Shown here: one piece after another, positions 269-64,000 of the stretch
Layout: each line of letters opens with the position of its first letter
How positions within the stretch are numbered: the first letter of the stretch is position 1
Origin: Amoebophrya sp. A120
Lineage: Eukaryota > Protista > Dinoflagellata
Assembly: GCA_905178155.1 (NCBI GenBank)
Contig: CAJINV010000003.1
Location: 9,059,979-9,123,978, forward strand
Length of the DNA stretch: 64,000 bases
Direction of reading: 5' to 3'
Program-made: the position numbers and the translations under genes
The notes under the pieces: model-generated
What the model was told of the DNA's origin: nothing
The model's database searches: none
The model's input: only the letters and a program-made list of their open reading frames with translations

Positions 269-1748
269 CTAGTTCTTCTCTTCCCCCCCCGCCCCTGCGA
301 CCGCACTATTTTCCCTAGAGATTCCTTCCCCCGAGCTAGTATTACTAGCCTCCGGGGAACAAGGAGGCGTTCGTCCGCCCTCCTGTCCTTTTTTCACGCC
401 GGCGGCCACGACCAAGTCGTCTGACTCTGAGCGCAGCTCCTCAAGGTAATGAATGCCCGGCGCCCCCCGACTATAACGTCCGTCCTCACAAAGGAAGATC
501 CGCAGCATTCGTTCCCTAGCAGCCTCATCGGCGGGAAGAGCAACCCGCTTACCAAGAACGTCTCCAAATTCGCGGTGTAGTAGAAGATGCAGATCATTCC
601 CCAAAAACCCGCGACACCACTATGCATTGCAAACGTGTCTGGGTCTGGAAACATGTAAACTTCTGATGCGCATTTTCGACCAGACAAAAATCTGTTATGC
701 ATGGACTGCAAAAGCTGCTCACTTCTTGTCCTCACTCAGAGAGGGAACTTGCCATGCGGATTAAGCATTGCGAAACAAGCTCAAAACCTGTGATGCTAGG
801 ACTTGCATGCCAGACATTCTCCGTCACGCATAAACAGCGCCACACTCTTCCAGACCCAGACATTTTTACATTTGATAACCACGGCTGTAACGCAATCTCA
901 AAAAGAACGTGTTGATCATGATCTTCACCTTCAGCTGCGGCTTCATCCCTGCTGACGGTCTTACGGTTGATGACCTCCTGCATGATCTGATCCAAGCTGC
1001 CAGCATCAGGTGGAGGTACAACATTCTGCGGTGAACCAGCACACGCGCCCTGCTCACTTCGAGATCTTCGGGTGGAGCATGATGGCAGCTGGTGGTGCAC
1101 CATCTGCAAGGAAAGAACATTTTTGCTGGCATCTGCACGGCGCGCCCTCGAGGACCACGTTCTTTCCCATGCCCTTCCTCGGGTCGTCCACCTACCAGGT
1201 GACAGAGCTTCGTCGGCAGGGCGCTCCTTGTTCGCAGTATCAGCTGTTGCCACAGCTGCACTTGTTGAACGAGGCTGTGTCTTTGCTTTCGAGAACGCCC
1301 ATTTTTCAGCCTCATCATCATCGCCTTCGTCTCGCAATATTAAAGCGCCAGTTCTCGCGTCGATGACTATGTAACCGTGTGCCCCCGTACTAGGTGAAGA
1401 CGTCTTACGTACTCTGAACGAATCCCGGTCGAGGCCGGTTCGTGTTTCTCCCAGACGAGAAAAGCTCCCGACCTCCACGACTTGGCCGCGTTGCTTCAGA
1501 CCCCGTATCAAAACCCCATCGCGAAAATGGCCTGTATGCACTTCCAACTGCGGAAACGTTTCCTCCTTGTTGGAGTAGTCCTGCTGTGCTTGGTCAAGAT
1601 GCACCGAGACGCCCTGACCAAGAGGCCCGAAAGACTGCGAAATGAAGTCCCCGGAGTGCATGCGGTAGAGGTCAGACGAAAAAACTACATCTCGTCCGTC
1701 TTTATCCAGCGTCATTGTCACTGTTACCTGCTCGGGACTTGAGCTCAA
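269..1748 (-). CDS. Hypothetical protein, at least 2 exons, 5' end uncertain
   Basis: ORF 732..1748 joins ORF 269..604 in frame (...EIALQPW-CRGFLGNDLHLLL...) after removing element 621-877 plus one ACCAC. No recognisable domain. Confidence 0.7.
621..877. mobile_element. Introner, TIR family A
   Basis: Left TATGCATTGCAAACGTGTCTGGGTCTGGAA pairs with right TTCCAGACCCAGACATTTTTACATTTGATA; perfect flanking repeat ACCAC (616-620, 878-882); interrupts an ORF. Confidence 0.92.
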
Positions 1749-2892
1749 TGACCGATGCTTCCCGGGGGCGAGGCAATGTTACTTCGTGGCGTCAACATCT
1801 TGCGCTGCGCGCTTCTTCAATGACGCCTCTGCGGCTCGTAGTAAGACGAATCATAGTTAGGTGGATGATGCTCATTTTTTTGCGAGCGAGTACTTTAACT
1901 TCTAAAGTTTCTCCTTGTTTTCTCACTGGGGCCGGCGCTTCCTTAGTTGTTCTGGATCGCAGCTTACTTAGAATGTATGGCCGCTGCGCTACGCTTCGGT
2001 CGTGGGAGACATGGTTGGCCTCTTCCCACGTGGCTCAATAGAACGGGGCAGGGAACGACGCATCGCTATGCACCACAGACAGCAGGCCTCCGCCGCGAGG
2101 ATCAGGACTACCAGATGGCGCCGCGGATCCTGCTCTGAAACGCAAGCATGCGCCCCACTACAAAATCATCACGCTCTTTGTCTTTGAGTAGAAGTTCTTG
2201 ACTTTCCTTTTATATCTAGTAAAAAAATACTGGTCAGGATCTGAAGGAACGACTACAAGGAGAAGGAGAGTGGTCGTTTTTCTTCTTCTTCAACAAAGCC
2301 GATGATGAAGATGATGATGTGGTGTCTTCTATTTGGCTATCCTAGCGCAAGTACTACAGATAGGCAAAAGTGTAGTTCCTCCGGCTAGAAAGGCAAAGGG
2401 TTACGATGCACTTTCATCATTTTCTTTCTCTGCCTCTATATCTATGAAGATCATGATCATGATGCAGATCTACTTATTGCTTGCGCTTTCGAAATCGAAT
2501 TATCGCAACGTTATATCTTCATTTCAGTGCTTCTTCAACTTCATGTAGCGAGCTTTCTGGACAAAGACAGAGAGGATCATGTTTGATAGGACAGAGGGCC
2601 TTCGTTAGATTATCTCTGGTGTGAAATTTTTGTAGTGCGGACCCAGAACAATTTCCTTGTTCAGAAAAGATTCAGTGAAATAAACTAAAGACCCGGACTA
2701 ATCAAACCAAACAAAAAAAACGTGCGGACCTCGTACGCGTACCGGCAGCACTAGCGCCAAAATCATGAAAGAGCTGAGCAGTCAATACGTGAACGAACTC
2801 CACCTATTGCGGTGCGACAGCGTGAGAAGTGGTCACTGGAGTGCTCGCTGCCCGCCAGCCCCTTTGGAAAGCTTTGCCTGCCCTCGGACGTC

Positions 2893-5118
2893 TCAGCTAC
2901 TATTGAGGTTTTCCACCAGTTCTCTGAGCCGAGCCTCCGGCAACGGGTTTACGGGCTCCTTTGCCATGAATTTCAGACATTCCTTGTTCAGCTTTTGGGA
3001 CCACTGTCGTGGAATGGAGGCTACCACTAGATTCACAGCGGCGCTGGGAATAGCGCCGCCAGGGTTGCTGTCGGTGATCACCCTCAAAAGCGTGGTGCCC
3101 GGCTTCGGGCCGGGCTCCAGAGTGTTGCCCGACATAAACACAGTCACGCGAACCTGTTTTCCCGTGGGAGGGTACGCGCAATCCCGACTGCTGGTGGAAC
3201 GCTCATAAGCGAGGTAGGGATACCTGGTTGCGTAAGCGTATACCACATTTTTTACTGCGTGTTTGCCAGAACACCTCAACAGTGGTTCGTTCAATTCAGT
3301 TGTACACGACTTAGCATTGATTTATTCATCAAAGGGTAACGATTAACGTATGAAAAGAATAAACATATCAAACGGGCGGCGCGTCTACCTCTACATATTA
3401 TATATAAATATACTGGAACGCCGGTGTGCATCTGGCCTCCCGAAACCGGATAATCTCACGATTGCTAAACCCAAACACCGGAGAGCGAATGACGACGCGT
3501 TCGATTCCTCGGTAGTAGTCACCTTCCAGCATTTCGTCCACCATAAAGTTGTCTTCCCAGGACATCCGCAGTTGGACGTTCTGAATGAGATGCATGACCA
3601 CTTCGGGAGGTGCGTGTATGATACTCTCCGCGAGGAAAAAAAGCACCTTCTGGACAGGTTGTTGCGTGTTGGTGGACGACGGCGGCGCCATGGAAGTAGA
3701 TGTAGACGACGAAGAGCCGCCGAGCTCGATGAACCGCTTCCACACTTTGCACTCTGCCTTGTCCAAAGCCAAGTTCCAGAGTCCTTGCCTTTCCTCTCTT
3801 CGAAATTTGTCCAAGAACTCCATAATGTAGCCGAGTTGCTACCGAAAGGAAAAACTCCCCCTCCCCATATTGACAAGGAACGTTTTCGAAAATTTGTGGT
3901 GCTGAAATGTGACCACGAACCGTCTCTGTGTTGCATGAAGGCGACTCCACAAGCTCCGCCGCACTCTACAGGCGGTTTGTCATGCTGTTGCACCTACAGC
4001 GTAGACGTCTGTCATGCAAAGCGCCTAGGCCAAAACCTGTCTACTCGTCGGGCTTAGTATGGTGCGCCTGCAGTCCTCGCCAGCAAGACAAATCTGATTT
4101 GTGTACGCAAATTGAGCATCAGAAACATTGTTTTGATATGGGGAGGGGGAATTTTTCCTTTTGATAGTTCCTCTTCCGCGTTCATGGGCGTCGCGAGCCG
4201 CTGGACCAATGGAGTTGCAATCATGTTTTCGAGGCTGCCGAAGCCCCCTCGGAAAGGGTGCAGTGGCAGCTTCGAAGGGAAGCCCTCCGCAGCTGTCGAA
4301 CATCCAATACCGCCGCTCCCTGCGAATATGGTGAAGAAAACGATATTTTTACGGGTAAGAGTTCAAAAAATGGACGGCAAGGCTAGGCAAATCGTAACTA
4401 ACCTACCAAGGGATACAAAATCTACAAAAATGCAATTTTCCCGGGCGAGACAGCTATCGGTCGGTTTGTTTTTTTGTTTAATAACTACCCGACTCCTCCA
4501 AAAAACTCGTAGATCCTCCAACCGCACTAAATAAATCTTGATCTACTTCCTATTGCGATTGCTGCAGAATTACCACAAACCGCCTGTAAATACTTCACAT
4601 TTTTGTTGCGCATGCGCATCGATATGATCACAATTATACTGCTGCACAACGCTGCTGCTGCGGGCCACTGCAGCAGTTGCAGTTGTCCGGTTTCGGTCGG
4701 CAGTAAATCTTCAAGTAGAACTAAAACTATGTCTAAGTATAAGTAGCTGAAGCGGTCAACATCAGTATACAGAAAAATATCGTCTACCAGACGAGCCAAC
4801 ATATTTACCGCCATCCTTTTCCGAATCCGAATCCTCTTCGCGCACCGAATAAAAAGGCTCCGACTCCTCGTCTTCCTCACGACGCACGCGTTGCCATGTA
4901 TCCACTGAAGATGAACCTGCCTGCGCGTACAGAGGACTATCTCGTCCTGCACTAGCATGTCGCCCTTGGAAAACCGACACTCCACCAGCACGGTGGCTTT
5001 TAGTTGCTACATACAACTGGTCCGCACCTCTATCGGGGCTACGACCTGGATCTGGTAGTGCAGACACCAATGCGGCCGAGTCGTAGGACTTTTTTGCGGT
5101 GCCGAAACAACACGGCAT
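2893..5118 (-). CDS. START-domain (StAR-related) lipid transfer protein, 4 exons
   Basis: START-like motifs: KVWKR, RMSWEDNF, SNREII, DSNPGGAIPSAAVN. Exons about 5118-4809, 4319-4167, 3834-3414 and 3223-2893; GT-AG introns at 4320-4808 and 3224-3413 plus introner 3840-4166, all joining in frame. Confidence 0.85.
3840..4166. mobile_element. Introner with its own TIR type (TAC...ATA ends)
   Basis: TACCGAAAGGAAAAACTCCCCCTCCCCATAT pairs with ATATGGGGAGGGGGAATTTTTCCTTTTGATA; flanks GTTGC/GTTCC; removal gives ...MNAEEE-LGYIMEFLDK. Confidence 0.88.
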
Positions 5119-7777: not shown

Positions 7778-7997
7778 CTGGAGTAATTGATGTACTAGCT
7801 GTACTGACCGTGAGAATTTCGCATCATTCAGGGGAAGGTCCAAGCAAATGGTGATGTGAAAAGCGAAATTGCAAAACTACGATAACAGCCTCATCTGCCA
7901 TCGATCATCTCAAGAACACATGGTTTTGATTGAGAAGCATATGCGTAGTGCCACACGAGGAAAAAAATGTACAGCTAGTCCATATGCAAAGGCATAT

Positions 7998-10771
7998 CTA
8001 AAGGCATAGGCAAAGGCTTCTACAGTAGTACGGGTCGCTACTGGTTGCAACTTCGACTGCGTCCAGAAACTGTGACACAAAGGCTTTGGGGTCGGATGGA
8101 CCCACGGACGAAGATGCAGCTGACGCCGAAGCCGTCGCAGTGGCCATCGCGGCTACCTCGACCTCCTTGAACTTGATGTAGTTGGGGGCGGCAGCAGTAG
8201 TAGTGGTAGAACTCGTTGTGCAACTGTGGCCTGCAAGAATCATTGTAGGCGCTGGACCCGAATTCGATCGCTCGGTTCGTGGCGAGGGCGGGCTCGTTAG
8301 AAAAAGAGCCGCCGACGATCCAGCAACATCGTCTTCCAGCAATGTCCGCTGATTTGGCGAGGAGAGAGGCGAAGGCTGCAGATGAGTCGGCATGCTAGAA
8401 GCGGGCTGCTCTTCTAACAGCAGCGTCTTTCCAACGTTGAGCTCAAGCGTTTTATTCAAGGTTGAGTTCGGGTTGGTGGCCTGCGTCGTCCTCGAAGTGT
8501 TCTGCTCTTCTTCCTTTTCATCGAGACCGGCGTCGGTCTCAGCAGGAGCGAGCCTCGCGACTTCAGCTCGGCGATTGGTGCTGGATCTCCGTATGTGACG
8601 AGCACGATTAGTCAGGATCTCCTCAGTAGAAATGCTGCCGGAAGTAGAAGATTCGCAAGGTTGTATTCGACGCAACATTTCTCCTGCCGCCTCTTCCTCG
8701 TTCGCTTGCGCCCTGCTGGTGCACCACCGTCCGCTTGCTGTACTGGACGTCGCTCCGCCGCCGGCTGCGGCTGCCCCTGGCTGTGGCTCCTGCTGATTAT
8801 TATAGAGAGCAAGGGACTCAACCATCTGCTGCAGTTGGCTTTTCTCTTCGCGCAGCTTGAATACCTCAGCGCGCAGCAGGTTTACCTCCTCCCCGCTTCC
8901 ACTGCCCCCCCCGGCGCGTCCATCCACCAAATTACCTACGCGGCTGGGTCGTCGCTGCACGATCTTTTTGCACCGACTCGCAAATCCAAGCGTGCTGACA
9001 GTCTCGGAGACTGCATGCTGTTCCCGCGCAACGGTGCACAAGATCTTCACGTGACTCGGATACCGGATCGCGTCCCAAAGTAATTTCGTCAGCTTGCTTT
9101 CCCGCCAAGGGATGTGCGCCTTTTTTGCTTGTGATAGACTGTTCACGACGTTGCCCAGCGCAGCGAGGCTTGCGTTGATGGATTTCGCTTCCGTCAGTTT
9201 TCGCTCGTGGTGCCGCTCGCCCAGCAGCCCCGCGCCTACGTTCGAACGCTCGGACCCAGCTAGGTCCACTAGAACCAAGCGTGACCATTTGGCAGGCGGC
9301 TCTTGCTTTCCCTTCCTGCTACGCATGTCGTGGTGGGTAGAAGTGTTGATGCCATTTTCCGTAGCGGCGTTTATTGCGTCTGTTGCAAGCGTGTTGTAGC
9401 CACTCGCGACGCTCCCGGTTTCCACCAGATGATCGTAGTTCTCCGGCTCAGTCGCAGCAAGATTGGCAGCATTGTCTTCGGCGCTCGTATCGTCACCAGC
9501 ACGGTGCCCGCTGGCGCTCGCCAGCGAAGCCCGCGAGGACGGCGGCTGACTCGGACAGCTTGTTGCCGACCCCATGTTCTTGACACTGCCCCCGGACGGC
9601 GGCGGCGCTGCCGACACATTTTGCTGGGTGTATCCGCCTCCGTCCTCCCACTTCGCAGCAGCAGGTGCGGCTCGCGGACGTACGTGTAGAGTCAGCAAAA
9701 CGTGGGAGCGGGAGGACATGTGCTTTGTCAACCCGAGCAGTGCCAGCTCATCTGCTTGCGCCAGTTGGGAGGAGTGCGTCTCTGGCTGCAGCAATTTCCC
9801 CGCATACTGTGCGAGAGGCGTGCCCGCACTAGTGCGCAGGTGCACCTCGCCCACGTAGCGGTTGCGCAGTGCCAGCTCCAGAATTTCGCTTGCATCTTCG
9901 TAGGAGTCGACCTCTACGAGGGTGCTGCCCTCCACCATCACACCCAGCTGGGGCACCTCTCGCAGCTGCAACTTCTTGCCGGCGCAAAAGAGGTCATAAA
10001 CCTGGTCGAGGTAGACCTGCAGAAATTCTAGTCGAACTTCCAATGCAGCTGCCCCTCGTGCGCCGCATCCCCGCAGATCTGAATGCGGGTCAGCACGCCG
10101 CAACAGCTCACTCAAGCAGTACGGCATTACGCCCTCCGCCTGTCCGCTCTCTAGTCCCATTGTATGCGTCTTCCCACTCCCCGTCTGCCCGTAGCATAGT
10201 ACCGCGCCTGTGTCGCCACTAGCTACCTGAAGCAGATACGCCAAGCCAAAGGTCGCGGATGGGAAGGAAGCGACGCATCACGAAATACTTCTCTCGAAAG
10301 AAAGCAATGTGTCACGAGCAATTTAGAACAAAAAAGAAAAACTTAAACTTTAACTTTTGGCTTTGACATGTACATGATACGTTGCATTATAACCGAGAAC
10401 AAGAGATGGTACTGAGACAGAATATTTATACGTACCTGCGTGACAAGCTGCCCGACAAACTGCTGGGCTACTTGTTCGTTGGTGCTTCCGGCGTCGAACA
10501 CGTAATCGAACGCGTAGTCCCGAAATTGCTGGCTTATCGGGGATTCCACACGTACGGCGCGCTCTTCGGCGAAAACGAAGGGAGTGCGGCTCGCGTCTGC
10601 GCATGGCTTCAATCTGACGCCGACCTGGACCGTCGTGGTCGTTGACGTGCTACTGGAGGCCCTGCCCGTGCCTGCCAAAACGGACGCCGTAGTCGAGGAC
10701 GCGATACTGGCGCTGCTCCCCGCGCGCTCGCGACCACCCCGCAAGGTGCTCGTGGAAGTGCTGCTTCTCAT
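7998..10771 (-). CDS. Kinesin motor-domain protein
   Basis: VQVGVRLKP, YAFDYVF, P-loop GQTGSGKT, switch I SSRSH, switch II DLAGSER, HIPWRESKLT, ETVSTLGFASR, then coiled coil. GT-AG intron at 10227-10435. Confidence 0.93.
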
Positions 10772-11200: not shown

Positions 11201-12895
11201 TCACTCGTTTGAAGCGGCGAAGTCGATAGCGTGTTTCGAATACCAACTCGCAAGCAAATCGGCCTCGACCCACTCCTTGTTTGTGTCGCGATTCTCAAAC
11301 ATGTGCAGTGTGCTGTCGGCCTCCGCGAGAGACATGACGACGAACTTGAGCGGTTCTTCATCAAACTCCTCGTCAAGTACTGACGTGCTGCTCTCAACAT
11401 CATAATTGTCAACATTCGGACTAGTAGAGGTAGTTGCACTTCTCGCTGTGCCACCAGTGTCTGGAGGTTCTTGCGTCGAAGCGGCTGCGGCTGCTGCGAG
11501 TCGACCACTAATAGTGCTGGCTATGGTCCTCGTGCTGGATCGCGTTCTCCTACTATTTGCCACCAACTGCACCGCAGCACGGATGGCATTTCTAACCTGC
11601 TCCACGTCTTTTTCCTCGACGGCCAGTATGGCGCGGATGTTCAAACGATTGGCCCACTTTTCGCAACGCATCAGCATGTGCAGTTCGGTGTGGAGAAGCC
11701 GTCGCTTGAAGCCCGCCCAGGTTGTCAATTTGAATCTCTCCTTGAAGAGCAAGCTCTGGTCGTCCGCAGCCCCATGCAAGTCCACCACATCGGCCAAGAC
11801 CATAACCGGCACACTGCCCGGACCTAGATTGCGAGACAGATTGGTCACGGCAGTCGCATTGGCCTCGCGCGCAACCCCACCGAACCGGTTCTGCCAGCCG
11901 TGGGCAGCGCGACCGGCGTTCTTCAATGCGTATTGTCTTGAAACGTCCCACATTTGTACGTTTTCGCCTTTCCCCGTGCACCGGGACATCTTAAAAGAGA
12001 GCGGCGCCGCTATCCTATAGTTAAAACGTGGCTCCCACCCCAGGAGAGTCAAGATCGATGAGAACTTTGCGAACACAAATCTTCCAGATGAAGTTTTAAA
12101 GCCTGTTCTTGCGCATGAGCATGACAAGTTGGGGCTCTACTCAGTATGCTGGTTGTGTTTGGCTAGTGCAGCCGCATCAAAAATCGATCATCTTATCTTC
12201 AGTAGAGCATCTTCACAAGTTCTCACATAGCATTAGATAATGGCCGTTATTATGTTGGGGATGCGCATGACAAACATTCTACTTACTAGATATGTTTCTT
12301 TAGCTTTTTAATGCATATATTGCAGTGCAAAACTAAAATAGCAGTTTAAGTAGGTCACTGCACCACGTAGCTGGAGCGAACTGCGAGAGGGTAAGATGCT
12401 TAGCCTGTAAATTTGATACAACTCTGGGGTGAAAAGGACGTTTGTGCACTACATGATAGAAGCGGCCACAACGAGCTCGCGGTTGTCGAAAGTCCTGCTG
12501 TGGCCCTTCCCCAAGTTGGACGCTCCGGACATCTGCGCCCGCTCACCACCAGCATAGTCAATCCCCTTTCGTTCGAGGAACAGGGTTCCGCTCAGCTGCG
12601 CGTTGGTAAAGAGAATCGCAGACACTACGTGGTAAATGGCTACCCCGGCAAGCGCCCAAGGCCGCGGAAAAGCCAGGTCCGCACTTTTGGGCCTGACCAG
12701 CTCCAGAGCCCGACTCGTAACCGGAGGGGAGTGCGCGAACATGTCGCTCTCATATTCAGTGTATAGGTCCACCACTCTTTGCACAGTAGCATTTATTATC
12801 CGGGAGTGCGCCAGAGGTGGAAGCCGGGAGTGCGCTTGCATGGTTGAGAACGCAAGTGAGTAGTATTTGTCGTCCAGGTATGGCGGACATCGCAC
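11201..12895 (-). CDS. Hypothetical protein (3' exons, probably the same gene as 14662-15941)
   Basis: ORFs 12449..12895 and 11201..12127 join in frame (ELVVAAS-PLSFKMSR) after removing element 12011-12458 plus 5 bp. Confidence 0.65.
12011..12458. mobile_element. Degenerate introner, family B-like
   Basis: TAT...ATA ends; decayed TIR (CCCACCCCAGGAGAGT / ACTCTGGGGTG); flanks GCCGC/GAAGC match 3 of 5; frame restored on removal. Confidence 0.65.
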
Positions 12896-12950
12896 AAAAA
12901 AAACATTTCTGCTTCACTGTAGTATGAAGGTCGCGCCCGGAGGGCGATAT

Positions 12951-14323
12951 TGGTAACCAAATGCGTGCGCGAAAATCTAACCAGCGCGAAAGCCTAACCA
13001 GCCGCGCGGCGAAAGCGCGGCCCTGCGGGCCGCGCTTTGGCGCTATTTATTTTTGATTACAGTCCCACTCCTTCGTCTTCAAGCCCCCCGCATGAGAAAC
13101 TGGCCCCCTGGCCAGGAAGGTTTCTGGGTCATCGGTGGCTTCCGGATTTCTATTCAAAGCGTATCGCAGGAGCCTGCGATACGCATTGAATGCAAAGTCC
13201 GGCTATGTGGCAGCGGGGCATCCTTTTTAGCCCCTGCATGACAAACTGGCCCCCTGGCCCGGGAGGTATGTTGCCGGGGGGAGGGCTTGAACGGGGCATC
13301 CTTTCTAGCCCCCTGCATGACAAACTGGCCCCTCGTCCCGAAAGGTATGCGGAAGGCCGAAAACCCGCGAACCCTTCCGGGCCACCAAAATCGGCCATTT
13401 CAGACCCGGGGAAGATGCAGAATTTCTGCCCACAACCCAGAGCAAATGCGGACTTTGTGACATGCCTCCGCCCGCTTCTAGTGCGATTTTTTTTCCCCAA
13501 TCGCGATGGTATGGCGCAAGCGCGCGCCCGCCGGACCGCCCTTGGTGGCCAGTTTCTAAGCCTGCCGGGGGTTCTCGATTTCTTTTAATTTTCGCGTTTT
13601 TTTCTGGTTTCTAAGTGGCCCGGGGGACCTGCACATTTTCACCGACCGCAGCTGACTGGCAGTTTTCAAGCCTGCGGAGGGATTGCGCTTTTGCGCAATT
13701 TTTCATCTTTTTATATTTTCCAAGTGGCCCGGGCGACCTGGACATTTTCACCGCCCCCACCTTGGTGGAAGTTTTGAAGCCTGCGGAGGGATTGCGCTTT
13801 TGCGCAATTTCTCATCTTTTCCCATTTTCCAAGTGGCCCGGGTGATCTGGACAAAATCCGACGATTGCCTCCACCCACGTTATGACGCATTTTTTTGCCA
13901 TTTTTTTCAAACTTTTTCCAGTTACGAAGCGGCCCAAGGCTTCCGGACAGGTCGCGGGCCTGCTGCTCCAACGCAGCTGGCCAGCGGGCGGAGCAAAAAA
14001 TAGTCCGTCTCTTTTTCAGATATCAAGTGGGCTAAACCGCAAAAATACTCTTTTTTCACCTTCTCCCGCTTGGTTTCTGCCGTTTTTGCGACATTTTTGA
14101 CCTCCTGGCCATTTTCCCATCTGGTCCGCTTTTTTTCCCTTCTCCCGCTTCATTTCTGGCCATTTCCCTGACCTTCACGCCTCCCGGCGGTTGCCCTATA
14201 TGGTAACGGCAACTGCCTTCGCGCTGCGTTTGCTAAGCAATATCGCAAGCGCGCAGAGCGCGCGCGCCGGCTTCGTGGGCCGGCGCGCGCTCTGCGCGCG
14301 CGCGCGCACGCATTTGGTTACCA
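12951..14323. mobile_element. 1.37-kb non-coding TIR element (probable non-autonomous DNA transposon)
   Basis: Perfect 21-bp TIR TGGTAACCAAATGCGTGCGCG (12951-12971 / 14303-14323); internal direct repeats; GC-rich hairpins near both ends; no convincing ORF; target-site duplication unclear (GATAT/GATCA). Confidence 0.8.
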
Positions 14324-15941: not shown

Positions 15942-15981
15942 GGATGCAGAAGCTGATTTTTTCCAGTTCTGGTTCTTTCGC

Positions 15982-16553: not shown

Positions 16554-18740
16554 TCAATAAGGATCCTCCGGTGGCGCCCTGATGACGCGTTGCTCGATCG
16601 TCTCGAGGACAGAACACCACTCGATACTAGGAATTACTTCAGGTTCAGCTGTATTCTTGTTCTGCGATTCCGCGGAAAATCCTGAGCCGGCGCTTTTCCC
16701 GTCTATGGCAGCCTGTTTAACGACGGATTTTTCCTGCTCGATCATGTTCCGCAGCATCAGGTCAAGTAACGGCAGCTCGGGTTTTCCGTTCGCAAGATTC
16801 CGCTCCGTATCTGCCATCTGCAGCGTCCGCATCAGTCGCAAATCCTTCAGTGCAACCGACAGATCGGCCCCGATTGGCGGCGTACGAAACTCGCGCTTGA
16901 CTAGCTTGCCAGCGTACACGTCGGTAATTGCGCCAGGCAGCACCCCACCCTGCGTGAAATCCAGTAAACGGTCCCGCTCGATGCCAGCCGCGTCCAACAG
17001 ACACAGACATTCGCCGAGTAGCTCGCCCAGCCCATACACGAGAAAATTCGTACAGATTTTGTACTTGGCCGAGGCCTATCAACTGTAAAAATGTCTGGGT
17101 CTGGAAGATTCCGGGATTTGTGATGCATATTTTCCATGAGCCATGATGTCTGTGATGCATGCCGTAGCATCACAGATTTTTAGAGGGCTTTGTGATACCT
17201 CTACCGCATGAGAAATGCCCTCTCCGCGTAACACAAACTGGATTCCTGTTATTGGTTATGCAATACAGATTTCTTTGGAGGAATCCAAAGAGAGCATGAC
17301 AAGTTGCAATCTTCCAGACCCAGACATTTTTGCAATCCATAAGGCCGTCGCGTCCAAATCCGACACTACTCGGCTGAGCCGCGAAAAGCAGGGCGCGACC
17401 TTCTCCCGGACGTACGCAGCCGCGTCTGGTTCTTCGGACGAGATCCAGGAACAGAGCAGCCGTTTTGCAGCGTGCTCGGGCCGCCCGGTCACTGAACAGT
17501 TCACAAATTGTGCGTCCTTTGCCTTGGCGGTCCGGGACGTGATGCGCGCCACTGTCTCCGGTGAGACGGTTGCACAGTTGATAAGCAGCATGCTCACCAG
17601 CCTTTTTCTTCCTTCTTGCTCTGCTACTGCTGCTGCACCTACTCCTGGCGAAGCGGATGTTGACGAACTGCTTTTATTTGCGTTGTGTGCGTGATCGGCA
17701 GCGAGAGCGACATCATCATCTCCTGGGCTTCTACTATAATCCGCAGAACATAAATTCTCTACTTGATGTTCGGCGACCTTATCTGACCCGTCGTTCTCTT
17801 GTTGACTTCCGGTATAATTACGCTCAGAAGCAATTGATGAAGACGCTGCTCGATTTAAGCTTATTGCGTAGTCCTCGTCCTGCTCCTGCTCCTGCTTCAT
17901 TAAGGCATGCACCATCTTTGTTCGCCCATAATCATCCCAATTGTCGAGGGCACGGAACATCAACTCCTGCGTAGCTCCGTCTCCATGTAACATGAAGACA
18001 ACAACCTGGCACGCTCCGATGAGCTCGTCAAGCGTTTCGTGCGCAAAAATCCGGACGCGTCGGGACACTCGAGGTTCGCGGGATTATCAGAAGAAAAAAG
18101 TGTTACAGTTTTGACACACTTGCTGTCCGCCATCAGCAACACGGATTTTTTCTGCATATATAGAGAAAACTTTAAATGCAGAGATCATGAGGGAACTCAC
18201 GGATGAAACTAGGCTCCTTAGTCTATCCGGCATAAGAGACCTCGTTTGTCTTGCCTAATCTGCAATACCATGTGTAGCTGTAAACACTTTTTTCCTTGCA
18301 TAGGGATGCCAATTGGTCCAATAACTGCTTCAACTCCTGCGTCTTCGCACCGGTGCGGTTGTACAGGTGGACCTCCCTGAATGTGCCGTGCTCGAAGTAT
18401 CAAGTGTAAAAACGTCCCCACCCCAGAGTTGTGATGCAGATTTGCAATAACAGGAACATTTGTAATGCGCATCTCCATGAGAGGCGTTTCTAGTCGTGTT
18501 TTGGGATTTGTAATGCTGTAACCAGGATAAGCAGATGGATTTGTGATGCGCTTTTCCTTGCTAACCTGCACTACACTACGGACTGCAACTTGTGATGCGT
18601 GAGTCCCAAAACTTCTAGGTTTGTGTTGCAAAATCCCCAGGTTGACTCTGGGGTGGGGATGTTTTTACACAGGATACGAAGAGATTGCGGGCCATAGCAG
18701 AGCCCATCGCACCAAGACCCACAAACCCCAGGCTTGTCAT
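16554..18740 (-). CDS. NAD(P)-dependent beta-hydroxyacid dehydrogenase (3-hydroxyisobutyrate dehydrogenase / 6PGDH-like family), 4 exons
   Basis: After removing three introners: MTSLGFVGLGAMGSAMARNL...YNRT...LINCATVSP...CSVTGRP...AKYKICTN...ALKDLRL. These give the Rossmann GxGxMG, the catalytic Lys/Asn and the KDL motif. Confidence 0.92.
17077..17341. mobile_element. Introner, TIR family A (opposite orientation to 621-877)
   Basis: TATCAACTGTAAAAATGTCTGGGTCTGGAA ... TTCCAGACCCAGACATTTTTGCAATCCATA; perfect repeat AGGCC; removal gives DATA-SAKYKICTN. Confidence 0.95.
18085..18302. mobile_element. Introner with its own TIR type
   Basis: TATCAGAAGAAAAAAGTGTTACAG ... CTGTAAACACTTTTTTCCTTGCATA; perfect repeat GGGAT; removal gives DQLAS-REPRVSRRV. 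Confidence 0.9.
18398..18676. mobile_element. Introner, TIR family B
   Basis: TATCAAGTGTAAAAACGTCCCCACCCCAGAGT ... ACTCTGGGGTGGGGATGTTTTTACACAGGATA; perfect repeat CGAAG; removal gives MARNLF-EHGTFREVHLYNRT. Confidence 0.95.
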
Positions 18741-22020: not shown

Positions 22021-22873
22021 GGTCAACATACACAGGAGAAGCAGGGGATAGAATCGAAATGGCGCGATGTGGTCCAGCTACTTGCTGTCGCATTACATCT
22101 TTCTAGACACTGTGATCACTTGAAAAATCCGAAAGGGAACGGGAAGTCTAAGTTCGAGCATTTCACTTCGTCGACCCAGTACACTTTTCATTTCCGGCAG
22201 GAGTGCTCCTGGTGAAGTACGCAGGGAGGCACACGACCAACGCAAGCCTGAAGCTGAACGTAAATAATGATCTAAAAAACAGTTGTACCCAAATCACAAA
22301 AAGGACGCTGAAACAACCACAATGTGAAGGCTATTATAGATGTAGTTGTTCTGAGTGAGGTGTGAGGCATACAAAACTAACAAGTCGATATGTTTCACCC
22401 AAATAAGTATAATATCATGATCGGGGCGGCTTAACCCGGCAGCTTGAATTCCTCATCACAAAAAAAAAACCACAACCATGAGTAAAGCCAAGGATGAAGA
22501 GATCGACCTCTAGCTTCTCCTCTCCATGTATCTACCTATGCCATGATTGTTTTCGTTGAAGATACCGATCGCACGACAACGCAAGAACTGAGAGCTTTAG
22601 AATCTAAATGCAACTACGCGTGGGGGGTCTGGATTTATGATCATGTGCTCTGCTATCGTAGGATCGAATTGCCTGTTTTGGAGATCCTATAGTCTTTCTA
22701 GTAAGAGCTTCTGATCTCGGCCTTGCCCTCCATCCTGGCTCCCACTGACTATCCGGTCGCGGCGTTGTTACGCCACACATTGAAGAGGGAGCTTGCTCGG
22801 AGGCGTGATCGTCAAATTAAAAGTGGATCCTCGACCACATTGACAATTAGCAACTCTGGTGGTGGTGGTGGTA

Positions 22874-44400: not shown

Positions 44401-47310
44401 CATTGCGGACGGGCTGGTAAGAAGCGCTGCGTCAGATTGGTATACTGTGTGAAAACATCGTCCCGCCCACGCCCACCTTGGATTATTTCTCAAGAAGAAG
44501 CTGCCTACTTTTTTACTTTCTGTCTGAGCTTGTGCAGGTAAAATTCGTATCTGCACGCACAACGATCGTGACGTGCCTCCCCAGACAACAAAGCGTTTTT
44601 TGATGTCGCTTTGGAAACAAGTTAGCAGCTCTAGTAACCACGATTAGCAAACGGCTGTTCCAGAATATTCAAGAGGTAAAAATTACCAAGATGAGTTATT
44701 TGAATTGAATGAATAAGAAAATTTGCAAACAGAGGGCGCAGCGTGGCGCCGACAACAATGATCAGCAGATATGTTGGACGGGATCAATTCGCCGAGAAGT
44801 AGTCAGCGAGCGGACGCGTCTCCGACATACATTTGCTTGTGCGCCGGATCTCCAGCTGAGTTTTTTACTGGGCGCGAGCGCCGAGTAGGGGAGGTCGCTT
44901 CTTTCGCTTTCACACAAGAATGCGGCTCGGCGAGAAAAGCCGCAAGCCAATGGCCCAAACAGAATTAATTCGGGCCTGAATTAAATCCGCCACCACAGGC
45001 CTCACCCCGGGCCCGGGGCCCACGGGGAGGGAAAAATAAAAAAATCTCACTGGGCGGGAAAAAAATTCGTTTTTCCCGCCCGGAAAAAAACGAATTAAAC
45101 GAATTAATCGAAAAAAAACGCGCCCAAAAAATTTGACAGGGAAATCACACATGAAATCCTGACCCAGCCCGCGGGGCCGGACCCGGAAATTAATTATTTT
45201 TAATTCCCCCTCCTGGGAGATTTTTTTTTCGATTTAATTCGAATTGATTCCGCCCCTGCTGGGCCAAAATTAAATCCGACTCAAGGGCCAGGTTTGAATC
45301 AGGCCAAATTTTACTCGGTGCGTGGGGCCCTGTTTTTCCGGGGATGGTTTTCGTCTGGAGAAAACGCGAGTCTCCGTCGCGTCAGCATGCAGCTCCAGCA
45401 GCCATCACATCATCTGCGAGGGAGCTTGTGCAGGCCGGGCAAAACACCAACAGAAGCAAAGGACCACAACCCCAAACAATGATGTCAACCGCTGAGCATA
45501 TCAAGTCGCGCCTCCAGGTTCTGCAGCTGCAAAAAAAAAATAATTCATTTAAATGGATTAACTCATCTTGGTATTTGGACCACATAAGAATATCAATGCG
45601 GTTGCGGCCGTGCTTCTATACCTAATAATTACTTACTTTGTTGCGGGCCCAGGCGAATTTATATCTGTCATCCACATCCTTGTCGGGCGCACCTCTCACG
45701 AAATTTCCATTTGTTGCACAGCAGGACAAGCATCTTGAATATGGGAAAGGGACGTTTGTACAAGTGATAATTGGCGCGCTCAACGTAATAACGGCGAAAC
45801 CGTTCGGCTGCCAAAGAAAAGGTCGTGGTCCCGGGAGTTGTTTTGCTTCCCGACCTCGCAGCGGGATCAGCGCTTATCGAAATGAAAAGCGCCCCATCTC
45901 GAAAGTGAGCGTGTAAGTGGCGTAGTACAAGTAAGTTCCTGCATTCAACTAAGCCTTCTTCTAGTCTTGTAATTTATCACGTTAGCAATCACAGCACACG
46001 AAGGCGGCACCTGAGGCGCCTTCCCGTCCTCGTTTTTTCAGTGCTGAACGATTGGAATGCAACCCGGCGCTTTTGAGTTTGATGCTAAGTCTGTTGAGCG
46101 ACCAAACGGAATTTTTACCGATCTTTGTGTTCAAGCACAAAAATGCTGGTTTATTGAGTTCTTATTGGAAATCGGCGGCTATTTCCGAGATGCGGCTGCT
46201 GGGGCGGGTGCCTTGATAGCGTCCACCGCGGGTTTTTCGTCTTTTCGCGATTGGTGGATTAAGAGCTGTCCCTCGATATCTTCTGGTAGGAAAACGTCAG
46301 CCCAGAACGCAGGACTCCTCGACCAGCGCACCAGCTCGCTGATGCCCACATCGTCCCACAAAAAGTATACGATAGTGGACAACTCCCCCTGCCCCTTCGT
46401 CGAACATCAGCATAATCTGCTTATTGAAGCATAGAAAATGGAGCTTGTCGTGTGTGAGGAACTTCTCATGCCGGGACTGACACTCCATGTAAGTGGAAGT
46501 AGTACCTACTCTAACTCTTTGCGCTTTATTCGGTGCGGCCTAGGAGTACGAGTAGGAGCTGCTTGCATTTTACATCTCACAAAACTGAAAGGAAGAGGGA
46601 GCTGTCTGTCTTTCTCTTCATAGAGTATTCATACCTTTGCGAATGCGATCGAGTACCTGAAGCGGCAAGAGGCAAATCAGTGAACAACTTTGATGTATCG
46701 AGATCGACAATCAATACAGCGAGCAAAGGGGGCGTCAAAAAAAAATAGCAATAGCTCAATACTCGGAAAGGTGGTTCTTTACGCTCTTGTGGTAATCATG
46801 TAGATAGCTTGGAAGAGTCTTTTCTGGATCTGCAGTGCCAAGAAGCCCACAAAGCACACCGCGCTCGGTCGTGTGCTCCGTCGAAGTTGCCCCCCCTGCA
46901 GGCAACCGCACGTGCGAACGCCGCTCGCTTGATATTTCTTTTTCATGATGAATGGCAACGTTTGCATCTGACGATCCGGGAGTCTTTAATGAAGCCATGC
47001 GATTTCGTAGCGTTTGCATAGGCCTTTCGTGCAGAAGTCCTGGAACGTCAAAGTTTTTTCCCGGTCGGAGCAATTTGCGGCTTCCCAAGCCCTCGCTCCA
47101 GATCTGGTGCACCCGTTTCACGAATTTGCGGTCTGGAGGCGGGTCGGTGCGGATGTCGCCTTCAGCTACAGAACGAACACGGCCCATCGGTAGAAAGTCG
47201 CATCGGCTGCGACTTGTTTCCACTTTGTACTCATCGCTTGCGAAGGTGCCTGTTGCTTCGAAGGAATGCAGAAGCCCAAAGAACAGCAGAAAACTCCAAC
47301 AATGCAACAT
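41449..47310 (-). CDS. DXD-motif glycosyltransferase, GT32 / Gly_transf_sug family, multi-exon
   Basis: Signal-like N-terminus; KRVHQIW; YFLWDD; FRDLAKYLILYFYGGIFLDADI; EPRHPFW; IFFLPWHNFNP (restored by removing 43399-43568). Exon structure between 44500 and 46760 is unresolved. Confidence 0.8.
43399..43568. mobile_element. Short introner (CAT...ATA ends)
   Basis: CATTCCCGGAAAATTTACCA...CCCCAT pairs with ATGGGGTTGGTTAATTTTCAGGGAATA; flanks AATGG/AATGT; removal gives YGSDD-IFFLPWHNF. Confidence 0.85.
44960..45318. repeat. Homopolymer-rich segment with degenerate inverted ends (possible MITE)
   Basis: GAATTAATTCGGGCCTGAATTAAATC matches the reverse complement of GGTTTGAATCAGGCCAAATTTTACTC at about 17 of 26; abrupt change in composition; no target-site duplication seen. 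Confidence 0.4.
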
Positions 47311-53681: not shown

Positions 53682-56600
53682 CTATCGGAGAGCATTTTCT
53701 AGCACCACACGCACGCCCCAGGCCTTCTTTGTAACATCTCGTGCAAAGGCTACAACCTTTGACGACAAGTCGAGTGCCGTTAATGCACTTTTCGTTGTGG
53801 AATGGTCGCCGAACGCCCTTGCGTGAACCTCCATGAGCATGCGCAACTGCAAAGAACCCTCCCCCGGTCTGGCGGGAAAAGCTAAGCTATTCTTTTCCGA
53901 CCACTCCTGGAAGGAACAGAAAAGTGGGTCTCTTCTGTTATGCGAAAAATCATTCTGCTGCCCTGGCTGGATACTGCGTCCTGCAGACGTTGCATTGTTG
54001 AGAAGTGACCCTTTCAAAAAGGTTGGCGCTTGTTGACTTAACACCTCCATCTCTTTGTCCGGCAAAGCCCAGCTCGTCCAATCGTCGTACCTACCGCATC
54101 CGCTCTCATCCGTCCGTACAAACACCTGAACGGTGTCTCGCAGCGCTTTGCGCCAGCATTCCGTCACGACAGGCGTGGTATCATTCTTCAAGTAGCTGTG
54201 GTCAGCATCAGGTGCATGAACAAGAACATCAGCAGCAGGTGCACAACCCCGTGTCGACGGCGAGCTAGTCTCGGTTGGCAGGGTACCATCCGCTGGCCGG
54301 TGAGGAGCCGTCTGGAAAGGTTCCGCGGAACCAGGACGCTCGTCTTGGTCAACCAACAGAAGCGCCATAAAAGTGGAGAGATCCACTAAGGCAAGGGTAG
54401 CGTATCGATCCGCTTCCACGCGGCTCGTTGGCACTCCACCCCAAATCGCGTCCTGTGCGTCGAGGTGCAGTACGTTGGGCAGCCGCATCAGAGTCGTATG
54501 GAAGCGTCAGGTTTGAAATCGTCAAAGTTGAAATAATTTGTAATGCATAAAATGCATGCCCCGAGGTGCGTGCGTTGCAGAGCAGGCAAGTGAGGCCGAT
54601 TGTAAGCCTGTTTGGGGTTACAGCTCGAGCTGCTAAAGTAGCATGAGAAAATCACTCTTCTTTGCCTAGACAGCACGACAAACTGGATTTAGGGACCGCC
54701 GAAATTTGTCATGCGCCACTTGGAAAATGGGTTCCAACTGGCATCCATTTTATGCATGACAAATTATTTCAACTTTGTCGATTTCAACTCTGACACATCC
54801 ATAAGTCGGATTCGACACGTGTTCTTGCCAGCGCAGGTTATTGATCGTATTACAATGAAAAATGCCCCCACCCCCGAACTTGAAAGCATTTGTATTGCAA
54901 ACCTTTCCAAATGAAAAATTCGCCCTCTTGCATGTATCAGCATCACAGATTTCCGATCGCGAATAGCAAAAATTTGTATTGCAAAAGATCCCAGCAAGAG
55001 CGGTGCTTGTCATGAAAGCGATGCGAAACACGACTAGAATCTGCATCAGAAAGATTCATACTCCTTTCATGCATGACAAAAAGTTTTCATTTGGAAACTT
55101 CGCATCACAAATTTTTGCAACTTTGGGGTGGAAAGCACTTTTCACTGTAATAGATCGCGGGATAGATTTCTCTGCAGCAGTGGTGAACATCCACCTCCAC
55201 TTCAGCACCGCCACTGCACATGCCCATATGGTCCTTTTCCGGGCGAAAAAAAACGAAGAAACTTCGCAAACTGTAGCCTTCGTTGTCCTGTGCGCACTCC
55301 CAAATTTCCCGTCCAAGCTCTTCTTTGAACGCCAGGGAGGCAAACAGAACCTGCTTTGCACCCTCAACAATGCTGCTTGCATCACACAGATTCAGGTAAC
55401 ACAACAACGGCGCCGATGATGCTTCGTCTGCTCTCGTTGTTTTTGCTAACGAGAGCTCTCGTCGTCCCAGGAGAGGTCTACTAGTACTTCTCTCGAAAAG
55501 TGAAAGGGGAGACCACCTAGTTCCAACACGAAGAAGATCTTGTCCTTCCAGACCAGGAACAGTGTCGTCCATGTCGTCCCTCTTGGGAACATGTGTTGTT
55601 CGCGCTGGTACCGCGAGCGACCGTGACGATCCCACAAGGCGGGTCCGCACTTCCTCACGAATATATCAAGTGTAAAAATGTCTGGGTCTGGAAGAATGCA
55701 ACTTGTCATGCTGATTTTGGATTATAAAAAAATCTGTTAATTGCATGAGCAGCAAAGAGAGTCCAAGTTTTGCTACACGCAAAGAGCATTTGTCATGCGG
55801 TATAGGCATCAGGAAGCCCTCACAAAATCTGTGATGCTAGGGCATGCATCACAGACATCAGGAGTCATGCAAAATGTGCATGACAAACCTGGCAATCTTC
55901 CAGACCCAGACATTTTTACATTTGATAGAATAACGGCAGGATCGACGTCCACGTCCGCGCGAGTGCAGAATATCAAATGCAAAAATGTCTGGGTCTGGAA
56001 GATTCTGAGATTTGTCCTGCATGTTTTACATGACCCAGGATGTCTGTAATGCACGGCCGCGCGTCACAGATTTTGAGAGGGCTTCCTGATGCCTACTCCG
56101 CATGACAAACGCCCTCCCCGCGTAGCACAAACTAGACTCCTCTTGCTGGTCATGCAATACAGATTTTTCTAGAGTTCAAAGTTAGCGTCACAAGTTCCAA
56201 TCTTCAAGACCCAGACATTTTTACATTTGATACAGAAGGCAAAGAAACGAAACAGGGCAGCAAGGAACCCCGTGTCCGGGAGGAACCGGTCGGCTGCGCG
56301 ACGCCAAAATTCCCCCGTCACAGGAATTGCAAAGTTTATCCCGACCGTGTTATACCACCACGACATCGCCAGACCCGGGTCCGGTCGCTTCACTCGACTC
56401 GGAGAGACGAGCATCTCTACTTCGCTTCTTGAAGTAGCCTCCGCTGCGACATCTTGTTCACTCTCGACGTCGACGTCAAAAGGGCTGCCAGAAGGCGGCC
56501 GACTCGTTGTGGACGTTGTCGTAGAAGCGGAAACAGTGCCGCGCCGCCCCCAGTGCCTTGAAGTGCGCGCGTTCTGTATTTCCCAGTACACCATCCAGGT

Positions 56601-60005: not shown

Positions 60006-63000
60006 TCAGCTGGGGAAATACTCGACGTGGTCGAACTTATCGCTGCCGACACGCATCCACCACACGTAATCACTGTCAACGTAGATGGTAGAATTAGCGT
60101 ACCGATGGCCAAACGCGTTATAGGGTGGGGTTCCGGGTGTGCGGCTGTGTAACAGGGAGAGCCCGATTCCCGGAAAATTTGCCAAATTGAAGTCGTGCCC
60201 CGAGGCGTAGTATTGGGTTTTCGCGGCGTATGCGTACATATCCTGCAGGAAGCCCTGCAAGGAATGATCTCCGTCGAGAAACACCACATCTAGGTCTTCC
60301 AAGTTGTGGGTGGCTCTCATGCTATTGCGGCGATGAACGAATAGCCCTACGCTGTCACGGCCGACGCGCTGGTTCTCCTCGACGATGAAAGGCCCCGGGA
60401 TCTGTGTCCGGTACCGTTGGCGGGCACGCCTCAGCAGAATTTGCGGAGTGACTACCGGTTCCGCTGGCTTGACCACTTCTGATGGCGCGGCTTCTCGGCT
60501 CGCGATGCTGCTTGTCGATGCTGTTCTTGCAGTGCTCGTAGATGAGATTGCAGATGTAGATGAAGTGCTAGTGCTTCTGCTGTCTTCAAGTAGAACATCA
60601 TCCTCTACAACGTGCTCTTGTTCTTGCTTGTGATTTTCACGTTGAGCAGCGGCTACGAGTTCTTTTTCAGGATGATCTCCTCGCGATCGTTCATCTTCAG
60701 GATGATCCTCGGCTTCAGGGTCGTTGGTCATGGTGGCGAAGTGCGTGAGATTCCTTATCACCGATTCGTAGACCGTGTCGGCCGATTCGGAAACGTCCGT
60801 CACTTCGGCCATCAGTCGAAACTCGTCCATTTCCTGCAGCCAGGGGTCCACCAGATGGTACTGAATCAGGATCCAGCCCGGTAGTTGGCATCGCGCGAGA
60901 ACGTCCATTGTCGTTTTCCCTTGGAAGATGCCGATCTCCGCGACGCGCAGCAAGTACGCATCTTGCATCAGCTTCTTGCGCAGAAACAAAAAGACCTCCT
61001 GTCGCAGTTTCTCCATCAGTGCGAAATTCACAGACTCGGCAAGATGTATCGCGACCGGCGTAATCTCGTCCTCTACTCTACTCCGCTCGTCAATGCTGCT
61101 CTGCTCCGCCTTGGAAGGAGGTAGAGAATCACCAACATCTTCGTCTTCGTTAGTACCGCCTCTTCCTGTTCGACTGCGTGCGTCCGGATCATTTTTTCCG
61201 TCGTCGTCGTCGTCCGGTTCACGTGCGGCGCCCTTGTTCTCTTGTTTAGACAAGAAGGTTTGCAACTGGTTGAGGCGGTGCGCCACGTTGCGCGCTTCCT
61301 GGCCAAATTGCTCGAGAATTGGCCTCGCCGAGTACCAGTGCTCAATCGGAACATACTCCAGCGGGGCCCCGCCTTGCTGGTTCTCCCGCCCCTGGTCCTG
61401 CTGCTTCGCAAAAAACCGGAGTCCAGCTAACACGGCGTCCATCGCGGTGTCTAGGCTGAATTCTCCATCTTCGTTTGTACTGATCTGAAAATCTCCCTCG
61501 AAGATGCCACCTTGGTCGGCGGAGCGCGTGCGCTCACTCAGCAATGTGAAGTCTTTCGGTGTGGGGTACAAAATCCACTGTCGGGTCTTCTCGAGGAGAC
61601 GACCGAACAGGATCCGCTTTTCTGTGACCGCCTTCTGGAGCAGGGTGCAAAGGACCTCAGAGGCCTTTGTTACGCGTCGGTCCGCCGCGCCCCGTGTGCG
61701 CTCGCGCGGAAGATCAAACATGTTGAAGCCGGACCGCAGGTTTTTGCCGGTCGGCAGTAGAAGATCATGCCCCGATCTTCTCGCATGATCCGGCGGCTGC
61801 GCAAAACGAACGCTGCCGTAAGCCGCCAAATCAGTTTTAATTACGGACACAGCTGGCGGTGCCGCTGCACTTGTTTTATCCGCTTCGGCTTCGCTTGCTG
61901 CCGATGCCGCGGGCGACAGGTAACCGAACGTTTCCTCTGCGTAGTGTCGTAATTCCAGAGTTTCAATCAGCGTGTCCCAGTGCGAAAGGAAGTTGGCCGT
62001 CCATGCATGCCACACGTCGGCGACTGTGTAGATTCCGGTGCGGGGGAATCCCGACATTTCCACCAGTAATCGGTCTTCCCCACTGGCCTCCAGAGCGGCT
62101 AGCGTTTGCACACGGCTCCCAATCACGCTGCCACGAACAGCCTCCTCCTCGTCCCGTCGCAGGTCCATCAGAACGTGCCGAACCTCTTGAAACGTCTCGC
62201 CGCCCGCAAGCACCTCGCGATAATCGGCGGCTAGGGGAGCTGAGTGGTGCTGTTGTAATTTCAATTCTACGTCGCTTTTTAGCCTGGACGTGACATCAGA
62301 AACGAACGCTCCTGTGGCCTCCCCGTTGCGCCGAGCTTCCTCGCTAGTAACTGTGCGATCTCGGACCGGATTCGTACCAGCTCCAGCGCCGCCCGCGGCT
62401 ATACTTCTCGTCCTCGAGAATGCAGAGCGCGGCCACCGTTCGCGAGGCAGCAAACTCAAAGAGGGCGGAGGGCGCCTGCCTTGTGGAGATTTTCTAGTGC
62501 CCGTACGTTGTACATTATCATTTCCAAAGTTACTGCGTTCCGCATCTTCGCTCAGGTCCTCTGAGGACGGCGAAGCAAATTCGGAGTCTGCTTCGTCGTC
62601 GTGCCCTAAAAGCTTTTTCCTAAAGCCCGGTCCGTTGCGGTCGTCGCTGTGTTCCTCCGCATACCCGAAATTATGCACCACTTCGCGAACAACGTCATTC
62701 TCTTCGTCAACCAGAAGCGTGCCTGTCCCCCCGTAGACGGCGTCACGTGGTGCTATGGAGCTCTCAACAAGCGTTACATTGATCCCTGTTGCATGCCTTG
62801 TGTATGTGCAAGAATACTAGCAAAACTGCAAGGGAAAGCTTGCCGCGGGTCTTGCATTTAAGTATTTACAGATTATTTGACATTGGCAAAAATTTCGGTG
62901 CTATGTGGTGCGTGGAGAACAAACTTGTCGTGCGAAGTAGCTTGATCGACGTGTCGTGAAGGGTTAACGTCAGTGAAGACTCTGACTCTGCACGACATCA

Positions 63001-64000
63001 AATCATGTAACAGCGATCGATGTCGCGTTTGAGAGTTCCATAGGTGCCGACACTTCGCCTCGGGCTTCCTCCAACTGCTTCTCGATGTCGCGGTCTTCGC
63101 GCCACTCCTCCCACGCTTTCAAGTGCTCACTCACCCAGAACAGTGGCGCCTGGCGCTCGATTGACTCGTGCATCGCGTAGGTGCAATTTCTTGGCAGAAA
63201 AACCGGCTGCGGCAGCACGTGGGTGATGTTCTGCGTAGACGACAAAATTCGGTGCTCCCACAGATAATGCCAGGGATCCCGCTGCAGAATGTCGCGCATG
63301 CTCCCTTCAAAGCTCTCCTCTTCCTCTTTCTCCTCGTTGTTGCTTTGTTCCACCCCGTTGTGGTCCCCTCCACCTCCTTGGTTGCTTTCTGAACTTGCCT
63401 GTTGCGCAGGCTCCACTTCAGCATCTCTTGCTGCTCTACTAAAACTGGGTCCACCGTCTTCCCGCAGGTGGTGTTCGTCTGGACTTGTCATTTGCGTGGA
63501 AGAACTGGAGGTGGCTCCAGCGTCTGCAGCGGCTCTTTCTGGTGCAACTTCTACCTGCGCCACTCGAAGTACGGAAGCTGGCTTCATCCACCCTTTGGGT
63601 TCGAGGAGCACTCCCATGTTTCCCAGAAACGTGTCGTCCCCACGAGATTCCGTCCATAGGCGCGTCCAGAGCTGCTCGGCACTGCACCGACTTCGCCCAG
63701 CACCGAAGGCTGGGTGGAACTTCGGCTCGCAACGGTCGTGCAGTGCCTGAAGATCCGTAAAAATGATACGATGCATGCGCTCGCAAAGGCTTTTCAACGC
63801 CAGGGCTTCCTGCATAACGCAATGCGGAAAACTTCTGCCATCCCGAACCCACTTCGGAGATAGCTCCAGGTCTGCGCTCCAAAACTTTTGGTGCGTGCGT
63901 AACCAGAAACGATAAGACGAAAGCACTTCCTCACACTGTGGGATTACGAAGTCGTAATCATGGTTCCTCGGCTTTCCACCGCCCTGCTTAGCGGAATTTC
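60006..64000 (-). CDS. Protein with a C-terminal class I SAM-dependent methyltransferase (Methyltransf_24-like) domain; 5' end outside window
   Basis: VAEIGIFQGKT, LVDPW, DVVFLDGDHS..G...D, GHDF. The upstream exon is open to base 64000 and joins in frame across 62754-63042. Confidence 0.85.
62754..63042. mobile_element. Introner, family D
   Basis: TATGGAGCTCTCAA...ACATTGATC pairs with GATCGATGT...TTGAGAGTTCCATA; perfect repeat GGTGC; removal gives EVSAP-RDAVYGG. Confidence 0.92.

Follow-up and report, generated by a model that had tools for sequence, protein, structure and literature searches.

Transposon-like introners in Amoebophrya sp. A120 genes: shared terminal architecture, insertion in both orientations and a probable cut just outside the element ends

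Introduction

More than 60% of the introns of Amoebophrya sp. A120 are non-canonical (Farhat et al. 2021; PMC7789003), and other Amoebophrya strains use canonical introns (PMC12005148). The A120 study describes introners whose ends are inverted repeats made of TAT, seven variable bases and at least three A, and which are flanked by direct repeats of 3 to 5 nt, given as 5 bp in the legend of Fig. S19 (PMC7789003). In the available text of that paper these introners carry no transposase, and the position of their splice sites with respect to the hairpin is given as variable or unknown. Introners of A120 flanked by terminal inverted repeats (TIRs) have also been reported together with Copia/Gypsy-like, integrase-like ORFs, which are a candidate mobilizer (PMC12130899). 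This and the other papers cited here are used from the portions of their text that were available.

Four further systems come close. Introns of Fritillaria borealis resemble the A120 elements in being MITE-derived, in bearing inverted repeats and duplications and in lying outside the GT-AG rule, and they are handled by a modified spliceosome; however, they prefer AG-AC/AG-AT ends, whereas the A120 elements have no fixed end dinucleotide except for U at +2 (PMC13326754, PMC11282704). The nonconventional introns of euglenids have a terminal stem, as is predicted for most of the A120 elements, and share with these a repeat at the junction and non-canonical ends a few bases outside the stem, but they leave as full-length circles through an unknown machine, and their terminal consensus differs (PMC11282704). 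In Micromonas and Aureococcus, introners are likewise non-autonomous DNA transposons turned introns whose target duplication is used in splicing; there, G(T/C)-AG sites are employed, one carried and one co-opted, whereas the A120 elements appear to need no AG (PMC9860276, PMC11282704). Finally, IS3EU/GingerRoot transposons have TA..TA termini, as here, but possess an integrase-like transposase, of which there is none in our window, and their duplications are usually 6 bp long instead of 5 bp (PMC10045372).

We analyzed a window of 64,000 nucleotides of A120 DNA, in which a sequence-only reading had noted at least 15 transposon-like introns. Like the introners published for this same strain, the inserts combine TAT inverted repeats, direct repeats and non-canonical junctions with no transposase; in contrast to the variable splice sites described there, we found a uniform 5-bp repeat and two junctions that lead to one register (PMC7789003). 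That introners with inverted and direct repeats had already been described in Amoebophrya is thus confirmed, including the TAT rule, and since the class is published for A120, its finding here is a rediscovery. Beyond this, the analysis contributes a register rule that can be tested, together with orientation independence.

Results

All 15 inserts claimed by the sequence-only reading were present at their expected starts, with lengths of 170 to 448 bp. They lie on the minus strand at 621 to 877, 3840 to 4166, 12011 to 12458, 17077 to 17341, 18085 to 18302, 18398 to 18676, 20423 to 20695, 24730 to 25034 (an end that ranked second among the candidates), 32282 to 32561, 43399 to 43568, 54497 to 54803, 54848 to 55152, 55664 to 55927, 55971 to 56232 and 62754 to 63042; below, we refer to them by their starts. 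Thirteen start with TAT, one with TAC and one with CAT, and ATA closes all of them, as had been stated. Read on the transcribed strand, TAT opens all 15, and both variant ends fall on the 3' side (GTA in 3840, ATG in 43399). A 16th minus-strand element of 1329 bp, with consensus ends and a perfect 5-bp repeat, had been overlooked at 44441 to 45769. Once it is taken out, a 68-codon frame upstream runs on into the ORF of a DXD glycosyltransferase gene, the same gene that harbors the short element 43399. Nested in it, at 44686 to 45571, is an inverted-repeat element with 34-nt arms and TA on either side, whose contig, 914 bp long, has a depth of 158 versus 43 and which we take to be Tc1/mariner-MITE-like.

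A perfect 5-bp direct repeat was found at ten of the 15 inserts, in line with the earlier claim, among them 621, 18085, 54497, 54848 and 62754; element 54497 also has long inverted repeats and is separated from 54848 by an exon of only 39 to 44 nt. The two copies agree at four of five positions at 3840 and 43399, at three of five at 12011 and 20423, and at two of five at 24730, the last three being older elements. Perfect repeats of 3, 4 or 6 to 9 bp flank none of the 15. Membership in IS3EU/GingerRoot was rejected because of the duplication length (perfect 6-bp repeat, 0/15; 5-bp repeat, 10/15).

We scanned the window with a strict rule, i.e., a 5-bp repeat, TAT..ATA ends and at least 13 of 20 inverted-repeat matches over 100 to 500 bp, and obtained 10 matches, whereas 200 shuffles gave 0.01 on average and never more than 1. 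A scan that ignored the direct repeat recovered 13 of the 15 inserts, missing 12011 and 24730 and scoring 20423 no better than background; its remaining hits with a score of at least 13 just paired the same ends in other ways. Taken over 82 ends, the consensus (T80 A82 T80, with A at positions 11 to 14 in 66 to 76 of the ends) reproduces the published A120 pattern of TAT, seven variable bases and at least three A, and the 5-bp repeat at the exon/intron boundary falls within the published 3 to 5 nt. As in MITEs, the inserts are short and non-coding, have inverted repeats and a target duplication of constant length, and occur in either orientation. In-frame stops are present in all 15, and 16 of 16 elements interrupt an ORF, compared to a window that is about 62% coding. 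No transposase family was found among the 30 window ORFs scanned against Pfam, and an Rfam search gave no match. We conclude that the inserts are real miniature-transposon insertions in A120 genes, and we have little doubt that they belong to the non-canonical introner class published for this strain.

The claim that all bodies differ did not hold. Elements 621, 17077, 55664 and 55971 are 66 to 82% identical and form one family (family A), and 18398 and 32282, 72% identical, form another (family B); the grouping into families known from A120 introners is therefore seen in the window, with four and two members. Element 3840 belongs to a third family (family C), with relatives at L002 and L005, two loci of a second assembly. 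Summed contig depth over four elements was 10^4 to 10^5 versus 44 in the flanks, a value that is not a copy number.

The families are found in either orientation. With respect to the direction of transcription, copies of family A are divided 3 versus 8 (5 of the 8 being clear): element 17077 is opposite to 621 and 55664, and 55971 is opposite to its neighbor 55664, with which it shares an ORF and 81% identity. Orientations are mixed in families C and D as well. Family B has a single orientation in three of three copies, which we count against orientation independence.

A pattern scan in another assembly yielded six loci (L001 to L006, contigs JACKZZ01...) with 31 element calls, one of them doubtful, at a density above that of the window. 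The window families recur there at 68 to 80% identity; families were reported to be strain-specific between A25 and A120 (PMC7789003), whereas here they are common to a second assembly. L002 is the L006 locus over 1384 bp and was counted once. A perfect 5-bp repeat was present at 17 of 22 elements, the finder itself having required at least three of five matches. The exons, of 40 to 80 nt, chain into ORFs: a removal length of 2 modulo 3 gave the longest spliced ORF in five of the six loci, and L005 and L006 both open only with a +5 removal. At L003 no ORF was gained, and at L004 the unspliced ORF (197 aa) exceeds the spliced one (151 aa).

In the window, removing each insert with five additional nucleotides opened the frame through 15 of 15, and the ten host genes claimed were recovered as 10 minus-strand ORFs. 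These ORFs of 394 to 1464 aa are open across up to four inserts and show no other lesion. Three database proteins are identical to window genes. The 3-hydroxyisobutyrate/6-phosphogluconate dehydrogenase-like gene at 16554 to 18740 (minus strand) becomes P0001 (Amoebophrya sp. A120, 469 aa) after three length+5 removals; elements 17077, 18085 and 18398 are missing in this protein, and only one of 64 length combinations fits, namely +5 at all three. The JmjC/cupin-8 gene at 19445 to 22029 (minus strand) corresponds to P0002 (Amoebophrya sp. A120, 768 aa), and the junction of 24730 is covered by P0003, presumably a protein of the A120 annotation. The predicted gap of element length plus 5 was borne out at five of five junctions in these proteins, and the elements are accordingly likely to be absent from mature mRNA.

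That the host genes keep their catalytic motifs, as had been claimed, can be checked in only three of the ten, those with a Pfam match, because the other seven ORFs have none. The lack of Pfam matches in seven ORFs is what one might see if ordinary MITEs had killed the genes and the database proteins were annotation artifacts, and removal is known here from database proteins, with protein searches by single exons returning only the gene's own protein (a search with a 1047-aa exon gave no match). Dead genes would hardly stay open and otherwise free of lesions over 394 to 1464 aa, however, and in the JmjC gene the HxD motif, which spans the junction, is intact only if the cut falls inside the repeats. 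The A120 gene models are, moreover, transcript-based, from a pipeline that used EST2GENOME and BLAT (PMC7789003), and the 40- to 80-nt exons of the second assembly also chain into ORFs. We consider inactivated genes a very improbable explanation.

Where the repeat is perfect, the mRNA is identical in six registers, and only elements with mismatched copies are therefore informative on where the cut lies. The window holds five of these, two of which have a database protein. At 20423, P0002 fits 3 of 961 length/register pairs, permitting only cuts 1 to 3 nt before TAT, and at 24730, P0003 fits a single pair of 961, with an intron from 24726 to 25035. The sole solution common to both is +5 with the cut at −1, so that the deduced intron takes in one base at the end of the first repeat, then the element, then four bases at the start of the second repeat. 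These two informative junctions suggest that the cut is probably fixed at 1 nt upstream of TAT and 4 nt downstream of ATA (−1/+4), and the introns predicted on this basis would run, for example, from 617 to 878 (element 621), from 3836 to 4167 (3840) and from 12007 to 12459 (12011). The sequence-only reading had deleted the element plus one repeat, which is correct in length but, where the copies differ, wrong in register: neither P0002 nor P0003 is reproduced in this way. Both informative junctions start with GT, and a GT preference of annotation aligners may therefore bias the register.

We tabulated the −1/+4 register over 36 elements, i.e., the 16 of the window and 20 in-ORF elements of the second-assembly loci, after dropping L003, duplicates of L006 and out-of-ORF calls. 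The introns so predicted start with N-T-A-T, the first base being G in 12, C in 12, T in 8 and A in 4; their 3' ends have no fixed terminal dinucleotide but carry a T-run at −19 to −15. A is found at −7 in 35 of 36, the exception being 3840 with G at this proposed branch position, and U at +4 in 35 of 36. The invariance of +2, +3 and +4 is partly by construction, because elements were picked by TAT. On the RNA strand, TAT is preceded by A in 0 of 16 window elements versus 4 of 20 in the second assembly, probably small-sample noise. In Table S4 of the A120 study, all nine predominant splice motifs have T as the second base, after G, C, A or T (PMC7789003), which agrees with the prediction of the −1/+4 register. 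The register explains only weakly that eight of these nine motifs have A at −2 versus 14 of 36 here.

None of the 36 has GT-AG in this register, and the GT/GC-AG ends of canonical U2 introns are absent. Over registers −7 to +2, GT-AG could be written for one of the 15 elements (32282) and GC-AG for one, which rules out hidden GT-AG sites in shifted registers for 14 of 15. A removal of length+2, leaving a 3-nt footprint as the NT-AN motifs of Table S4 might suggest, was ruled out at the five tested junctions and at L006.

A 1612-nt contig of a presumed-RNA set (X3) breaks off, with 355 letters left, at 54491, precisely where the repeat of element 54497 lies; this is as splicing would give and is suggestive only. 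The raw RNA runs X11 and X12 had just 12 and 3 reads matching the window and speak neither for nor against splicing. In DNA, long X1 contigs (about 43x) cross elements 43399 and 62754 without a gap, and this DNA therefore carries them, X1 possibly being the window's own source.

These contigs bear on whether the elements might leave the DNA itself at a certain stage or in a certain nucleus, with expression from a cleaned copy. Internal eliminated sequences of ciliates are the model for such a process, and the A120 elements do look like symmetric transposase substrates that work in both orientations. The gap-free X1 contigs speak against it, as far as a possible source of the window itself can, and a DNA machine would be blind to the direction of transcription, yet two of two informative junctions are cut 1+4 in that direction. 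The published introns were furthermore called from RNA-seq against this DNA (PMC7789003), and excision from DNA appears highly improbable to us. Judged from the junctions, the elements are likely removed from pre-mRNA at a fixed spot. Non-autonomous DNA-transposon-like elements removed from RNA, as proposed by the earlier reading and published for A120 (PMC7789003), remain the best reading.

Discussion

On balance, we favor the explanation that these are TIR introners with a 5-bp duplication, removed by a relaxed spliceosome that cuts at −1/+4, and we regard spliceosomal chemistry as the somewhat better candidate for the removal itself. A DDE transposase supplied in trans would have inserted the elements, making the 5-bp duplication. 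The spliceosome may then take both its donor and its branch signal from the symmetric inverted repeat and measure to the 3' cut. At the 5' end, U at +2 would act as in GU, G at +1 not being needed; as the inverted repeat is symmetric, either orientation should give an N-U-A-U-C/G 5' end and, at the other side, a U-run followed by a UGAU-like motif. The A that opens ATA, lying 7 nt away from the 3' cut, might serve as branch point, and distance, not an AG, might determine where the 3' cut falls. What would stay in the exon is four bases from the first copy of the repeat plus the final base of the second copy. With these bases retained, the mRNA that existed before insertion would be restored, and inserting into an exon would cost almost nothing.

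Several published observations are compatible with such a spliceosome. Nearly all spliceosomal proteins and the U2, U4, U5 and U6 snRNAs are present in A120 (PMC7789003), and in yeasts the loss of SNRNP27K goes with +4U donors (PMC10581693), snRNP27 being undetected in A120 in the available text (PMC7789003). Short, fixed distances from branch to 3' end are known from Yarrowia, Trichomonas and Giardia (PMC2483917), and in tunicates spliceosomes can adapt to transposon-derived ends (PMC13326754). Two points count against the spliceosome: U1 snRNA is likewise undetected in A120 (PMC7789003), and donor and branch would be masked if the inverted repeats pair, as they are predicted to do in 13 of 15 elements.

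The same two points would suit RNA-level removal by a spliceosome-independent, stem-guided nuclease/ligase that reads the terminal hairpin, as in euglenids, with the same transposon origin. The terminal stems are predicted in both orientations, orientation independence would follow naturally, and neither G at +1 nor AG would be needed; in euglenids, introns with inverted repeats and duplications indeed leave as full-length circles (PMC11282704). However, the oldest informative elements, 20423 and 24730, are missing in the proteins, yet no sense-strand terminal stem is predicted for them: folded with 20-nt flanks, 0.7 and 0.2 nt of 25 are paired, respectively, and with shorter flanks the terminal stem of 20423 is present in the centroid. 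The register also gives U+2, A+3 and U+4, resembling a GUAU donor. Overall, a stem-guided machine seems unlikely, if by no means far-fetched. As for the idea that the shared terminal rule defines the splicing signal, it is supported and unproven, and the cut would lie at −1/+4, not at the element ends.

If the relaxed spliceosome is taken further, one rule might account for the apparently motif-less introns of A120, with a U1-less and SNRNP27K-less spliceosome that makes −1/+4 cuts around a palindromic transposon end. One trinucleotide would then serve as an N-U-A-U donor at one end and, at the opposite end, as a branch point lying 7 nt away from a 3' site that lacks AG, and any copy, in any orientation and at any exonic site, would be a perfect intron. 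We put this forward tentatively, as a possibility toward which we do not yet lean.

The register and the orientation result were not found in the available portions of the literature, although Figures 3 and S19 to S25 of the A120 study (PMC7789003) and the datasets of PMC12130899 may contain them. A fixed −1/+4 register together with orientation independence would turn "variable splice sites" into a single genome-wide prediction and would name a candidate branch nucleotide. If true, it implies a spliceosome, or a new machine, with no need for G+1 or AG, and it would account for coding sequence being filled by a transposon at low cost.

Some features of the window were observed alongside the elements. 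Its long ORFs all lie on the minus strand, which fits the co-oriented gene blocks reported for Amoebophrya (PMC7789003), and a kinesin motor gene at 7998 to 10277 contains no element. The intergenic region from 12900 to 14300 is repeat-rich, with a 109-bp tandem unit at 13608 to 13853, and positions 1 to 178 consist of a 30-bp tandem repeat in 5.9 copies.
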